Source of the DNA: an uncultured Spirochaetota bacterium
GTDB taxonomy: Bacteria > Spirochaetota > Spirochaetia > SZUA-6 > CAVTHK01
Direction of reading: 5' to 3'
Assembly (NCBI GenBank): GCA_963734495.1
Contig: CAVTHK010000001.1
Span: forward strand, 480,001 to 544,000
Length of the DNA: 64,000 nt
Of this stretch, positions 47,783 through 59,793 are shown piece by piece (within the stretch, counting starts at the first letter, position 1; each line of letters begins with the position of its first letter). Made by a program: the position numbers and the translations under genes. The notes under the pieces are model-generated. The model was not told where the DNA came from. It saw only the letters and a list, made by a program, of their open reading frames with translations, and ran no database searches.

Positions 47783-49087
47783 CTACTTCTTGTTCACGGT
47801 CGAGTCAAGGCTGTCCTTGACCTTGTTGTAGTAGTCCTTCGCCGCGGCCTCGGGCGTCATCCGCTTGTAGAGCACTTCCTGCACGTCCTCCATGCTGCCC
47901 TTGAGGATGCCCGCCGTCGGGACCGGGGGCATGGGCTTTCCGTTCGGGACGGTCTTGAAGAACATGTCGCGCCAGACGGGGTCCGCGACCCAGTACGGCG
48001 ACTGCGCGCTGTCGGTCCTCGGCGGAAGGTTCCCGGTGCGGGTGATGTAGACCATGTTGTCGCGGCTGTACATCCACTTCATGAAGTCCCAGGCTTCCTT
48101 CTTGAACTTCGCGAACTTGCTGATGCCCTCGACCTTGACCTCGAGATATGTGGCCGGGACACGAGCGTAGGGGTACGGGGCGGTCTTCCAGCTCTTGCCG
48201 GTCTCCGCCTGGTCCGAGCGGCGCTTCATCCAGGCGCCGTCCTGGCACATGGCGAACGTCCCGGCCTGGAAGCCGGGATCCAGCTCGGTGTACTCCCAGC
48301 CGAGCGAGAACTCGGGCGCCGACTTGTCGGTGAACATCAGGTCATAGTAGAGCTGGAACACGTCCTTCGCCTGCTCGAGCGTGAAGCCGGGCACCCAGCG
48401 GTCGCCTTCCTTCTTCGCGAGGTCGCCGCCCGTCGACCACAGGTGGATCGCGAACTCCTGCGGTCCGCGGATCGCCTTGCTCGAGGAGCAGAACGCGAAG
48501 CCGAAGAGGTCCGGCTTGCCGTCGCCGGTGGTGTCCTGGGTCAGCTTCTTCGCGGTCTCGCGCAGGTCGGTCCAGGTCACCGGCACCTTCGCGATGCCGG
48601 CCTTGCCGAAGATGTCCTCGCGGTAGAGCAGCACGCGCGTGGAGGCCGTGCTCGGGATGCCGTAGATCTTGCCGCTGGCCGTCGCGACGTTCCAGGTCGC
48701 CTGCGGGAACTTGTCGGCGTCGGGCCACGCCTTGACGTTCGGCGTCAGGTCCTCGAGGATCCCCATCAGCGTGAACTCAGGGATCCACTCGCCGAGCATG
48801 TGCATCACCTCGGGGCCCTGCTGGGCCTGCCCCGCGACGATGTACTTCTGCTTGAGGTCGGCGTAGACCATCGTGTTCCACTTGATGGTCACCCCGGGGT
48901 GCGCCTTCTCGTACTCCTTCTGCTTTTCCTGATGCGAGATCCCGTCCACGTTCGTGGCCGGGTCGAACACGTTCCAGATCTCGATCGTGGCGGGTCCCCC
49001 CTTGGGTGCCGCCCCCTCCGTCCCTCCCGAGGCGAACAGAGCCGCCGCCGCGAAGGACGCGGCGCAGATGACCGATAGTCTCTTCAT
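47783..49087 (-). CDS. Sugar ABC transporter substrate-binding protein
   Basis: GGGGAAAAGGAGG RBS; signal ending LFASG; YEKAHPGVTI, GKIYGIP, LLYREDIF. Confidence 0.92.
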   Translation of the reverse strand: MKRLSVICAASFAAAALFASGGTEGAAPKGGPATIEIWNVFDPATNVDGISHQEKQKEYEKAHPGVTIKWNTMVYADLKQKYIVAGQAQQGPEVMHMLGEWIPEFTLMGILEDLTPNVKAWPDADKFPQATWNVATASGKIYGIPSTASTRVLLYREDIFGKAGIAKVPVTWTDLRETAKKLTQDTTGDGKPDLFGFAFCSSSKAIRGPQEFAIHLWSTGGDLAKKEGDRWVPGFTLEQAKDVFQLYYDLMFTDKSAPEFSLGWEYTELDPGFQAGTFAMCQDGAWMKRRSDQAETGKSWKTAPYPYARVPATYLEVKVEGISKFAKFKKEAWDFMKWMYSRDNMVYITRTGNLPPRTDSAQSPYWVADPVWRDMFFKTVPNGKPMPPVPTAGILKGSMEDVQEVLYKRMTPEAAAKDYYNKVKDSLDSTVNKK

Positions 49088-49204
49088 GCAAGCCTCCTTT
49101 TCCCCTGACACGAAACTCGGGGAGCTATCCTAAACCTTTGCGCGCCGACCCGCAAACGGCGCAGCCGAAGCCAGCCAAAGCCTTTCGTCGCAGGCCGCCG
49201 GCCC

Positions 49205-56311: not shown

Positions 56312-57108
56312 CTACAGCTGCGTGTTCTGCACTACGTCCCACTGGCCGGCGACCGTCCCGCACGGACGACCCGTCGGACGCCGTAGACGGTAGTAGGTGA
56401 TCTTCACCTTTCCGAAGCTCAAGGTGACCTCTTCGACGAAGCTTCCGCGCCGGATGTGCCGGCGGGCTTGAAGGAGCTCAGGAACACGTCCTGAAGCTCG
56501 TATCTCAGCACGAGCCGGAACCGCTTCGCTTGACTGCCGGCCGATATCCACTGTCGCCTGCTGGATATGGGTGCCGCTGGCCGTGTCGATGAACAGCGTG
56601 GGCGAGGCCTTGTCCACGACCTTCAGGATCCTGAAGTCCTGGAAGGTGGCCTTGCCCGCGCCGCCGCCGCCGCCGCCGCCGCCGCTGGAGCCGGTCTGCG
56701 TGACCCCGAAGCTGTAGCCCAGGGTATCGATCCAGTTCGGATGACCCGCGTCGGTCGATTCACCGTCGATGCCCGTCGATCTGCGTAAAGATGGCGAACC
56801 CCGCGAGCACGGGCACGTCGCTCGCCGCTGTTCCGGCGAGCCCCTCCACGTTGACCGTCACGTCGCTCGGGGTGCCGGCGGGCCCCTGAGCGCCCTGCGG
56901 CCCGGCTGGGCCCTGCGCGCCGGCCGGCCCCTGCGGACCAGGGGTGAGCTGGATGGTCTGGAGGGACTGGGAGAGGGACTGGACTTGCGCCGTGAGCCTG
57001 TCCACCTGGGCCTTCAGGCCGTTGTCAGCGTTCTGCGCCCACGCGGACGCCGGCCAGCACCATGGTGAGCACGGCCGTGAACGAAAGGAACTTGAGGTAC
57101 TTCCGCAT
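56312..57108 (-). CDS. hcp: Fusion of signal peptide, coiled coil, collagen repeat and Hcp (T6SS tube) domain; several frameshifts
   Basis: GGAGG RBS; MRKYLKFLSFTAVLTMVLA/ASAWA; (G-X-Y)8; IDGIDGESTDAGHPNWI...YSFGV...GAGKATFQD...KVVDKASPTL...SGTHI...YELQDVFLSS...EEVTLSFGKVKITY...WDV. Confidence 0.85.
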
Positions 57109-57192
57109 GACACTTTCCTCCTGGCGCGTAAGTTCGAAAGGCCGACGGCGGAAGTCAAGAAGAACCGGCTGCCGTGTCAAGGCTGCCGCGAT

Positions 57193-57219: not shown

Positions 57220-57601
57220 ACGCGACGCGCTGCGGGCTCGAGGTCAGGCGGTTCACAACGCGCGGCTGATGAAGAGGTTGCCGAGGTGCGAGGAGCGGAA
57301 GGCCTGGCGGATCAGCTCGGGAAGCCGCGGCGCGGCGGCGTGGGCGCCGATTGCGCCCGCGGGGAAGTCGCAGTCATCGTCGGGAAGGATGCGTGACGTC
57401 CCCGTGGTACGCAACGGAGGCACCCGGAAGGATCGAATGTCCTATATCTCTTTGTTCGCCGCCAGGTCTGAGCGTTGCTTCCTCCTCGTTATGCTCTCCG
57501 GCAACGGCGACTGTCTGTCAAAAGCCGGATCTCGGACTTGCGCGCGGAGGCGCCGGCGCGCGCGCTTGCCGGCACGCGCCCCTTGTCCCTACACTCGCGT
57601 G

Positions 57602-58401
57602 GTGGCCGTGATCTACGTCGGAACCAGCGGCTACTCGTATTCGGACTGGGTCGGCCCCGTCTACCCGGCGGGGACGCGGCAGCGCGACTTTCTGGAGCTG
57701 TACGCGCGCGAGTTCGCCATGGTGGAGCTGAACTTCTCCTTCTACTCCCGGCCCAGGGCGGAACAGCTCGCGCGCATGGCGGACAGGGCGGGCGAGCGGA
57801 TGCTCTTCAGCGTCAAGGCGCACCAGTCCCTGACGCACGAGCGGCCGGAGGATCCCGGCGCCCGAGGCGGCCGCGCTGCGCGACGCAGTAGCGCCCGCTG
57901 GCGGAGCGGTCGAGGCTCGGCGCGGTTCTCGTGCAGTTTCCCTTCAGCTTTCACTACGACGTGCCCTCGCGGCGGTACCTCGACCGCCTCTGCCGCAGCC
58001 TCGAGGGGCTGCCGGCGGCGGTCGAGTTCCGCAACCGGGAGTGGCAGCGCGAGTCGGTGCTGCAGTCGCTCGCGGAGCGCAGCGTGGCGTTCGTGAACGT
58101 GGACCAGCCCGAGCTGCCGGAGCTGCTGGAGGCGAGCGAGGCGGCTACCGCGGACCTCGGCTACCTGCGCTTCCACGGCCGCAACAAGACGAACTGGTGG
58201 ACGGGGGACAACGCGACGCGCTACGACTACCTGTACTCGGACGGCGAGCTGGAAGGGTGGGTGGACCGGGTGCGGGCGATCCTGAGGCGGGCACGGACGT
58301 TGCTGATCGCCTTCAACAATCACTTCAGAGGTCAGGCTGTCCAGAACGCGCGGATGATGAAGGGCCTGCTGGCTCGAGACGGTATCGGGCCGGTCGCCTG
58401 A
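57602..58401 (+). CDS. DUF72 domain protein; frameshift near 57860-57895
   Basis: IYVGTSGYSYSDW, VELNFSFY, QFPFSF, AVEFRN, YLRFHGRN, RYDYLYS, FNNH; preceded by TTGCCG-N18-TACACT. Confidence 0.92.
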
Positions 58402-58457
58402 CGGCCGGCTCGCGGCGACTTGTCGAAGGCGTGGATGATGAATCTGATTGTCGGGTA

Positions 58458-58486
58458 TTGATTCCCGCGAGGGGCGTTATTATATT
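58458..58486 (+). promoter_or_regulatory. Sigma70-type promoter of the candidate sRNA
   Basis: TTGATT-N17-TATATT, with no SD-led ORF directly downstream. Confidence 0.75.
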
Positions 58487-58492
58487 CCGGTC

Positions 58493-58662
58493 AGCGCACA
58501 TGCTTCTGTCGGGGCCTCCCGGGTTTTCGACCTCCTTTTCCCCGGGAACCAACCTTGACAGGGGCGGCCCCCCGGGTTTTCGACCTCCTTTTCCCTGGGG
58601 GCTTTTTTTTGCCTTGCGGCCCCCGGGGATTCGACCTCCTTTTCCCCGGGGGCTTTCATTTT
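58493..58662 (+). ncRNA. Candidate trans-acting sRNA with three hairpins displaying an anti-Shine-Dalgarno loop
   Basis: Invariant TTCGACCTCCTTTTCCC at 58526, 58579 and 58630, each clamped by a C/G stem; T8 after hairpin 2 and TTTCATTTT after hairpin 3; upstream promoter. Confidence 0.7.
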
Positions 58663-58735
58663 CGCGCTGCCCGTGCCGCCCAGTGCCGCTCCCGGCCGGG
58701 TTGACATTCCGAGGGCAAAAAGCTTGACTTCTCGC

Positions 58736-59793
58736 ATGCTCTATGCGCTGGGCCAGCTGCTGGCGCCCGTCTACGGGCCGTTCCGGCTGCTGCGCTCCCA
58801 CCTGTTCCTGGCCGTGCTCGGCCTGATGGCCTGCTGGTACCTGTCCTGGAAGCTGCTGCCCCTTCTCGCCTGCCGGCTCCCGAGCGATCGCGGCAGGCAG
58901 TACGCCGTCGGCAGCGAGCACGCCAAGGGGAAGCCGACCGGCGCCGGTCTTCTCTTCGTCTCCATCTACCTGCTGGTCCTGCTTCTCGTCGTGCCGTGGG
59001 ACGCCAGCTACCTGGTGGTCATGGCGTGCATCTTCGTGGCGATGCTCTTCGGCTACTTCGACGACCGGGCGACTCACCCCTGGTCGGAGTACACCAAGGG
59101 TTTCATCGACCTCGTGCTGGCGCTGATCGCGGCCTCGGCGCTTTGGGTGTTCAAGTTCCACGAGGCGCCGGTGTGGCTGCCCCTGACAAAGAAGTTCTTC
59201 CACGTTCGGACCGGTGCCTTTCATCGCCGGCGCTTCCGCCCTGATCTGGCTCGTCGTCAACGCCGTCAACTGCACGGACGGCATCGACGGCCTGTCGGGC
59301 ACCCTGTCCGTCCTCGCGCTGCATCAGCCTGGGGGTCGTGCTGGCCTTCGTGGTCGGGCATGCGCTGTTCGCCGGATACTTCCTGGTGCCGCACTACCCC
59401 GACGGCGCGCGCTGGGCGATCATGGCGTTCGCGATGGTCGGCAGCCTCTTCGGCTATCTCTGGCACAACGCCTATCCCAGCGCGCTGCTGATGGGCGACG
59501 CGGGCTCGCGCGCCGTGGGCCTCCTCATCGGCATCCTCGTGATCGCGACGGGCAATCCCTTCGTCATCCTCACCGTCGCCACGGTGGTGCTGGTCAACGG
59601 CGGCACCGGCCTGATCAAGGTGGCGCTCCTGCGCTTCTTCCGCATCGGGATCTTCCACGACGTCCGCTTCCCGCTGCACGACCACTTCAGGGACAAGTGG
59701 GGGTGGAGCAACACGCAGGTGCTGCTGCGCTTCGCCATCGCGCAGACCCTGCTCACCATCGTCCTTCTGTCGGTCCTGGTGAAGATCAGATAA
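58736..59793 (+). CDS. mraY: Phospho-N-acetylmuramoyl-pentapeptide transferase; frameshifts near 59215 and 59325
   Basis: GPFRLL, KGKPTGAG, GYFDD, NAVNCTDGIDGL, YLWHNAYPS.LMGDAGS, PLHDHF. Confidence 0.9.

Follow-up and report, generated by a model that had tools for sequence, protein, structure and literature searches.

Bacterial small RNAs (sRNAs) that present the same anti-Shine-Dalgarno (anti-SD) sequence in several adjacent hairpins are known from the Alphaproteobacteria. According to the sections available of one report (PMC10746234), alpha-r14/NfeR1 forms three hairpins with dissimilar stems and an identical CCUCCUCCC anti-SD motif as redundant seeds, and NfeR1 acts independently of Hfq and represses the mRNAs of periplasmic ABC binding proteins at the ribosome-binding site (RBS). 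The cuckoo family, in its excerpted description (PMC4615179), carries two to four anti-SD hairpins. Our analysis revealed a locus of comparable design in an uncultured Spirochaetota bacterium (assembly GCA_963734495.1), at positions 58458-58662 of a 64,000-nt stretch of contig CAVTHK010000001.1 (positions 480,001 to 544,000; the whole stretch is hereafter called the window). It is very probable that the locus represents a genuine sRNA gene. The first-pass annotation of this DNA had suggested an sRNA on the plus strand, and an independent, conserved, non-coding gene on that strand is borne out by copies unique to the locus, by synteny in the only other genome of the genus (G001, hereafter the congener), by a promoter footprint and by stem covariation. 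We consider it reasonably probable, furthermore, that this is a stand-alone plus-strand gene whose RNA loops mask Shine-Dalgarno (SD) regions in trans. The family to which the RNA belongs is uncatalogued, but its design is already known from the alpha-r14/NfeR1 and cuckoo RNAs.

The predicted features of the locus, with the scores of its hairpins against a family covariance model (CM) described below, are as follows.

58458-58463, plus strand: -35 hexamer TTGATT, read from the sequence; TTGATC in the congener, unchanged in four related-strain contigs.
58481-58486, plus strand: -10 hexamer TATATT, separated from the -35 hexamer by a 17-nt spacer; identical in the congener, unchanged in the related-strain contigs.
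Near 58493, plus strand: predicted transcription start, placed by its spacing to the -10 hexamer.
58493-58501, plus strand: predicted single-stranded 5' leader AGCGCACAU, unpaired in the fold; CAGCGCAC is conserved in the congener.
58502-58565, plus strand: hairpin 1, from the fold, with outer helix 58502-58514/58553-58565, inner stem 58517-58523/58541-58547 and a 17-nt loop (58524-58540) that contains UUCGACCUCCUUUU; same nested hairpin in the congener; CM match of 30.8 bits.
58566-58603, plus strand: hairpin 2, from the fold, with stem 58566-58576/58593-58603 and a 16-nt loop (58577-58592) with the same motif as hairpin 1; CM match of 66 bits, which follows by construction from the presence of this hairpin in the seed alignment.
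58603-58610, plus strand: T8 run after hairpin 2, an intrinsic terminator tail; predicted isoform of about 118 nt.
58618-58654, plus strand: hairpin 3, from the fold, with stem 58618-58629/58643-58654 and a 13-nt loop (58630-58642) with the same motif; CM match of 46.7 bits.
58655-58662, plus strand: interrupted U-run TTCATTTT, a weaker second terminator; predicted isoform of about 170 nt.

The near-consensus promoter that the first-pass annotation had placed at 58458-58486 was recovered with both hexamers and the 17-nt spacer, and TTGATT-N17-TATATT is the sole sigma-70-like site on either strand of 58200-58950 (1 site versus 0.1 expected from shuffles). The invariant 17-mer TTCGACCTCCTTTTCCC, reported at 58526, 58579 and 58630 and thus 53 and 51 nt apart, is exact in all three units. 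Identical loops do sit on GC stems that differ and still pair, in agreement with the fold: GCCCCCGGGGA pairs with TCCCCGGGGGC in hairpin 3, and hairpin 1 is extended by pairing of GCTTCTGTC with GACAGGGGC. The two tails reported earlier, T8 after hairpin 2 and TTTCATTTT directly after hairpin 3 (58654-58662), were as well present, and both hairpin 2 with its T8 run and hairpin 3 with TTCATTTT have the build of Rho-independent terminators, a G+C-rich stem followed by a U-run. Terminator-like sites in 58200-58950, like the promoter-like site, occur on the plus strand only. The units resemble tandem duplicates, and hairpins 1 and 2 share a stretch of up to 25 identical nt. When up to three mismatches were allowed, the 17-mer gave four matches in the window versus 0.10 expected, and none of 100 shuffles reached four. 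A 49-aa open reading frame (ORF) at 58555-58704 was rejected as a coding sequence, as its frame is interrupted by 1-nt indels when the window is compared with the congener.

The loops read UUCGACCUCCUUUUCC, and the 3' end of the 16S rRNA of the same genome is GGAUCACCUCCUUUCU. Each loop contains ACCUCCUUU, nine consecutive bases of this 16S tail, which upholds the earlier assignment of the loops to the 16S anti-SD sequence; judged by its sequence, the loop motif is an extended anti-SD sequence flanked by U-runs. In the genome assembly (5.38 Mb in 18 contigs, 83% complete) the exact 17-mer has three copies, all at the locus, and three further matches at two mismatches are unrelated coding or intergenic sequence. 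A search of the genome with the covariance model returned eight matches at E <= 1, three of them the hairpins of the locus and five ordinary, short-looped terminators that lack the motif. The tens to hundreds of copies, often at gene ends, that characterize REP or MITE elements are thus replaced here by three copies at one locus, and the concern that the element might be a REP-like repeat with hundreds of copies across the genome did not materialize.

Folding of the plus-strand RNA (58490-58670) yielded three hairpins with all motif copies unpaired (-89.9 kcal/mol, z = -5.5), and none of 200 shuffles folded as well. The fold of the minus strand is weaker (z = -3.2), and that of the predicted short isoform alone (58493-58611) has z = -2.9. 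Promoter, U-runs and folding all favor the plus strand. Across the family, moreover, the T-run always lies 3' of the ACCTCC strand. The preference expressed earlier for the plus strand, over a minus-strand sponge for CsrA, therefore holds: promoter-like and terminator-like sites are confined to the plus strand, and csrA adjoins fliW. A long-range pairing between 58492-58497 and 58664-58669 was rejected, as it extends beyond the terminator and no matching 3' partner was seen in the congener alignment. Two alternative small hairpins on the plus strand (58584-58601 and 58635-58652), formed by pairing of CCUCC with the GGGGG in the 3' arm of the stem, are also possible; they would hide the motif and do not belong to the minimum-energy fold.

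In the congener a homologue lies between the same neighbors, a DUF72 gene upstream and a glycosyltransferase-4 (GT4, MraY-like) gene downstream. Pairwise alignment showed that the -35 (TTGATC) and -10 (TATATT) hexamers are kept and that the spacer between them is almost completely diverged, the footprint expected of a real promoter. The RNA of the congener folds into hairpin 1 nested in its outer helix, followed by hairpins 2 and 3 (z = -5.2), with compensatory changes in hairpin 1 from C-G to U-A in the inner stem and from G-C to A-U in the outer helix. The loops of its hairpins 1 and 2 retain (C)ACCUCCUUUU. The strong U-run follows hairpin 3 in the congener versus hairpin 2 in the window, the run after hairpin 2 of the congener being weaker (TTTTCC), which indicates that the terminal unit is evolutionarily labile. 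A BLAST search of the locus across the order returned, beyond the congener, only short pieces resembling hairpin 2 and chance matches.

Public sequencing runs cover parts of the stretch only, and the uncovered parts were left uninterpreted. Over 58000-59300, the contigs of four runs, one of DNA and three of metatranscriptomes from two studies, are 93-96% alike. Their differences fall within 58423-58476, including six promoter-spacer positions within 58468-58476, at 58490, 58515 and 58517 (one run), and, at high density, in the coding sequence downstream; neither hexamer differs, nor does 58518-58639, in any of the four runs. Such a distribution is in keeping with purifying selection acting on both the RNA body and the promoter boxes. 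The contigs from RNA libraries span 58373-58640, 58413-58577 and 58426-58639, which attests to presence in RNA libraries only, and as transcript evidence these metatranscriptome contigs are weak at most.

The covariance model R1 defines the family by a loop composed of a U-rich segment, ACCUCCUUU and U, closed by GGG/CCC on a variable, covarying outer stem that is usually followed by a U-run. The hairpins of the window conform to this definition with 66 (hairpin 2, itself in the seed), 46.7 and 30.8 bits. Among 93 matches of the model (86 distinct), 98.5% of the alignment cells pair and eight of ten base pairs show compensatory changes (171 cells). The covariation score was 0.479 versus 0.139 in shuffles; 0 of 500 shuffles reached it, and slid controls remained at or below 0.158. 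Hence, the stem covariation that the first-pass annotation had proposed to look for in relatives was found, and it is strong. RNAalifold, applied to a MAFFT alignment of 56 hairpins, predicted no structure, because differences in loop length shift the stems.

An order-wide search with the pattern GGTTT, 0-3 bases, ACCTCCTTT, 0-2 bases, CC detected the motif in 44 of the 92 genomes of the order to which the window belongs, and the reversed pattern used as a control gave four matches in all. The matches concentrate in two sister families, f7 (23/24 genomes) and f6 (16/21), followed by f1 (1/1), f2 (2/25) and f3 (1/5), and none was found in f4, f5 and f8 together (0/15). The covariance model recovered 24/24 genomes in f7 and 16/21 in f6, so that the motif is indeed kept in related genomes; CM matches near 30 bits in other families are possibly plain terminators, as in the genome of the window itself. 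After removal of overlapping pattern readings, each genome has one to three motif sites. In f7 the RNA takes the form of a single motif hairpin and U-run with a short 5' hairpin ahead, and some f7 genomes carry two such genes about 200 nt apart. Many relatives bear a second, single-stranded copy of the motif just upstream of the hairpin, and in family f10 a two-hairpin form stands behind TTGACA-N17-TATATT in 3/3 genomes. Within the order, the candidate sRNA family is close to universal in two families, and it is also present in several further lineages of Spirochaetia.

A slightly stricter pattern, scanned against the contigs of all species genomes, found at least 120 loci. In 72 of the 120 loci listed, the motif occupies a hairpin loop, and at least six T in 16 nt follow on the same strand; among the 80 loci with titles there are 43 of this hairpin and T-run type, and 39 of these are labeled as spirochaetes (Sphaerochaeta, Sediminispirochaeta, Salinispira, Treponema sp. 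metagenome-assembled genomes (MAGs), and Spirochaetaceae/-ales/-ia). Four more loci, with the labels Bacteroides uniformis, Leucobacter, "bacterium" and "uncultured bacterium", resemble the Sphaerochaeta form and may be mis-binned, which is likely for the Bacteroides uniformis and Leucobacter sp. MAGs. The listed matches that lack a hairpin are scattered over many phyla and resemble chance occurrences. Several loci labeled "Spirochaetia bacterium" match f7 loci over about 120 nt, which assigns the order of the window to Spirochaetia, and the outer-sheath flagellar protein FlaA encoded in the genome of the window is consistent with this assignment. In a phylum sample the pattern was present in only 20 of 401 genomes, with the motif in 0/38 genomes of f32, 1/75 of f27 (hairpin unchecked) and 1/50 of f9. 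A CM search of five small genomes (1.0-1.8 Mb) of the same class returned only two plain terminators. Metagenomes scanned for pairs of motif copies at a distance of 35-50 nt gave at least 118 loci and no further three-hairpin homologues, the inspected loci being unrelated repeats, coding repeats or chance matches. In the genomes sampled, the family is patchy and not phylum-wide. The locus is most likely the three-hairpin member of a Spirochaetia family whose other members usually have one or two motif copies. The earlier statement that no such family was known in this lineage consequently stands in so far as the family is uncatalogued, with no Rfam match; it does not stand for the locus as a lineage-specific oddity, as the family is spread through Spirochaetia. 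Cultured relatives carry it, and the covariance model could serve to annotate it.

Some relatives show further peculiarities. In f7 relatives of both genera, TGTAACC, 13-14 nt and GTTGTT are conserved about 60-110 nt upstream of the motif hairpin; one f6 locus has a GTAACT variant of this upstream motif, which is absent from the version in the window. The f7 upstream motif may be an alternative-sigma promoter or a regulator site, and by eye it fits neither sigma-70 nor sigma-54. In two f6 loci the motif hairpin is followed by CUUCGCCUCCUUAUUUUAUUUU instead of a plain U-run, which places a second CCUCC in the 3' tail. In one relative (G044) a tRNA gene (Rfam tRNA, 50 bits) precedes the sRNA-like hairpin by about 60 nt, and the RNA of this hairpin may be co-transcribed with, or processed from, the tRNA transcript.

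Apart from those of a few pathogens, the RNA regulators of spirochaetes are, to our knowledge, poorly characterized. A full-text literature search returned no description of such an RNA in spirochaetes, and a search of the whole window against Rfam 15 at gathering thresholds, the check recommended earlier, matched no family. A permissive scan of the window gave sub-threshold scores of 19.3 bits for anti-hemB, 15 bits for ar14 and 12.2 bits for sX13, which amount to resemblance and not to membership, and Rfam at E <= 0.1 on 20 relative loci returned nothing beyond a tRNA and sub-threshold LhrC. The ar14 match (RF02344; 15 bits, E = 1.9, 58534-58658) lies far below the gathering threshold of 58.8, and the window loops read UUCGACCUCCUUUUCC where ar14 has CCUCCUCCC. 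The arrangement typical of ar14 and cuckoo, two to four neighboring hairpins that carry one identical loop motif on dissimilar stems, is present here, and the resemblance is architectural only. As far as the excerpted descriptions of alpha-r14/NfeR1 and cuckoo go, the likeness comprises adjacent anti-SD hairpins with the same motif, differing stems and a sigma-70-type promoter. The differences lie in the motif, ACCUCCUUU(U) with U-runs here versus CCUCCUCCC there, and in the phyla, Spirochaetota versus Alphaproteobacteria; in most Spirochaetia members, moreover, the motif hairpin is itself the terminator, and the second copy, where present, is single-stranded. Convergence is more likely than homology, and if so, distant phyla would offer a clear example of multivalent SD-masking RNAs that evolved convergently.

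LhrC (RF00616), from Listeria and thus of another phylum, is as well a multi-seed, CU-rich sRNA with motifs in loops and in a terminator hairpin and with RBS targeting. Its seed is UCCC and not the full anti-SD tail. It is the sole sub-threshold Rfam similarity in the relatives (34-36 bits in 4 of 20 loci, against a gathering threshold of 110), and it has no match in the window at E <= 10. The RoxS/RsaE, sX13 and 6C-type RNAs likewise expose repeated, unpaired C-rich motifs that pair with G-rich SD regions. Their seeds are of the CCCC type, and they differ from the present RNA in seeds, structures and lineages; all remain below Rfam thresholds (sX13 with 12.2 bits against 50). CsrB, RsmY and RsmZ share with it the design of several hairpins with an identical loop motif, whereas GGA occurs here only on the strand without promoter or terminator, and CsrA is of the FliW-linked type. 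In the part available of a 2026 preprint (PMC13734083), the hairpins of the Borrelia plasmid-borne sRNA LdsR are reported as conserved in Spirochaetes and Bacteroidetes. The present family may overlap with these hairpins, LdsR having been compared by its description.

From its sequence and the alphaproteobacterial precedents, we propose the following mode of action for the RNA. Transcription of the plus strand would start near 58493 from TTGATT-N17-TATATT and end at hairpin 2 with its T8 run, giving an RNA of about 118 nt, or read through to hairpin 3, giving one of about 170 nt. In each hairpin, ACCUCCUUU(U) would be exposed in a large unpaired loop, and the loops would pair in trans with AAAGGAGGU-like SD regions of a set of mRNAs, thereby blocking 30S binding and lowering translation. 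The three redundant seeds would confer multivalency, and the flanking U and CG bases might give some target choice. Trans action, SD masking, the targets and the ends of the transcript are all predicted in this proposal. The gene for Hfq was not found in the genome (assembly 83% complete).

The leading candidate targets are mRNAs of ABC-transporter solute-binding proteins. In exact-word scans, three ABC solute-binding-protein genes had complements of 11-13 nt at the position of their RBS, and one of these genes lies in the window, as follows.

49093-49105, minus strand: candidate target RBS GGGGAAAAGGAGG, preceding the solute-binding-protein gene 47783-49087 (minus strand; Pfam SBP_bac_1/SBP_bac_8); a 13-nt perfect complement of the loop and closing bases of hairpins 1 and 3, with a duplex energy of -19.1 kcal/mol.

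Other RBS complements precede genes for a GH2 glycosidase, a thioredoxin-like protein and further genes. When 2667 SD-led starts from rough gene calls were ranked by the energy of their duplex with the loop, the 40 best-ranked included six SBP_bac proteins versus one (plus one ZnuA) in 40 random starts, and 12 ABC-transporter components versus six (raw counts). Over the 2667 RBS regions, the energy of the duplex with the loop correlates with that of the duplex with the 16S tail (r = 0.66), and the target ranking is confounded by SD strength.

Several other explanations of the locus were weighed. The RNA might be a mimic of the 16S 3' tail with no defined regulon, which either competes globally for SD sequences or titrates, as a decoy, a factor recognizing the 16S 3' end. 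We regard this as unlikely; if true, the RNA when induced would reprogram which mRNAs get translated, favoring SD-poor ones. The conserved core is the full 9-mer of the 16S tail (CACCUCCUUU in many relatives), which is longer than the usual C-rich sRNA seeds (4-6 nt) and comes in three copies per molecule, and the correlation of loop and 16S-tail energies points the same way. However, stoichiometric competition with ribosomes needs very high RNA levels, the bases flanking the core vary by lineage (UUCG-, UUUC-, UUUA-, GU-), as expected for lineage-specific targets, and the decoy version comes without a candidate protein partner. Next in order of probability, and improbable, is a cis-acting element, either a compound terminator or 3'-UTR of the DUF72 gene or a leader or attenuator of the GT4 gene. 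DUF72, hairpins and GT4 indeed share one strand, their synteny is retained in the congener, and the RNA-library contigs begin within DUF72 or shortly after it and extend into the hairpins. Against this, a conserved promoter separates the DUF72 stop (58401) from the hairpins, relatives elsewhere have unrelated neighbors (after a tRNA, beside membrane-protein genes, or in tandem pairs) and conserved promoters of their own, ordinary terminators of this genome have short loops, and no SD-like motif that the loops could sequester was seen within 20 nt ahead of the GT4 start (58736).

It is highly improbable that the minus strand is the functional one, its RNA offering three AAGGAGG loops as a CsrA sponge. 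CsrA is encoded in the genome, and the reverse complement places GGA in hairpin loops and still folds better than shuffles; yet no promoter- or terminator-like site exists on that strand in 58200-58950, A-runs precede its hairpins with no U-runs after them, the T-run in the family always follows the ACCTCC strand, and csrA lies in a flgL-fliW-csrA cluster. In other bacteria, FliW-linked CsrA is antagonized by the FliW protein and is not known to be antagonized by sponge RNAs. The least credible explanation is a functionless dispersed repeat of the REP or MITE kind, or a chance tandem duplication of a terminator. It could account for the likeness of the three units and for the stretch of up to 25 nt shared by hairpins 1 and 2, but the element is confined to three copies at one locus of a 5.38 Mb genome, the motif hairpin is kept at one to three copies per genome across families, and related strains show no differences in 58518-58639 although the flanking DNA varies. 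The stand-alone sRNA that masks SD regions in trans, which we prefer to these explanations, has points against it as well. The loops of 13-17 nt are far larger than those of ordinary terminators in the same genome, and loops of this size are unusually large for efficient intrinsic termination. The loop of hairpin 3 in the congener is degenerate (GACCUCAUU, then T6). The CM-guided alignment (A3) is fitted to the model, and the invariance of the loop is partly circular, as the pattern and the model both demand the motif; unbiased evidence for loop conservation is therefore limited to the taxon-sampled counts. The RNA-library contigs are unstranded and of low depth, reach across the promoter, and could be DNA carry-over or DUF72 read-through. 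Finally, the enrichment of ABC binding proteins among predicted targets is a trend only, and target specificity is left unexplained, SD complementarity being generic.

Both flanking genes look frameshifted. The DUF72 gene (57269-58401, plus strand) is split between two frames near 57900-58100, and the GT4/MraY-like gene (58736-59793, plus strand) is split over three (58736 to about 59205, 59214 to about 59320, and 59338-59793). These frameshifts could be long-read assembly errors or reflect pseudogenes; in the case of assembly errors, homopolymer lengths such as that of T8 are possibly off by one. Further upstream, a 132-aa ORF on the minus strand (56760-57158) has a signal-like N-terminus and collagen-like GPxG repeats (GPQGPAGAQGPAGPQGAQGPAGT). 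Elsewhere in the genome of the window, two genes of the phage-integrase family (C1:37601-38812 and C9:168627-169838) share identical length, RBS region and Pfam scores, and their presence on different contigs suggests a duplicated mobile element.

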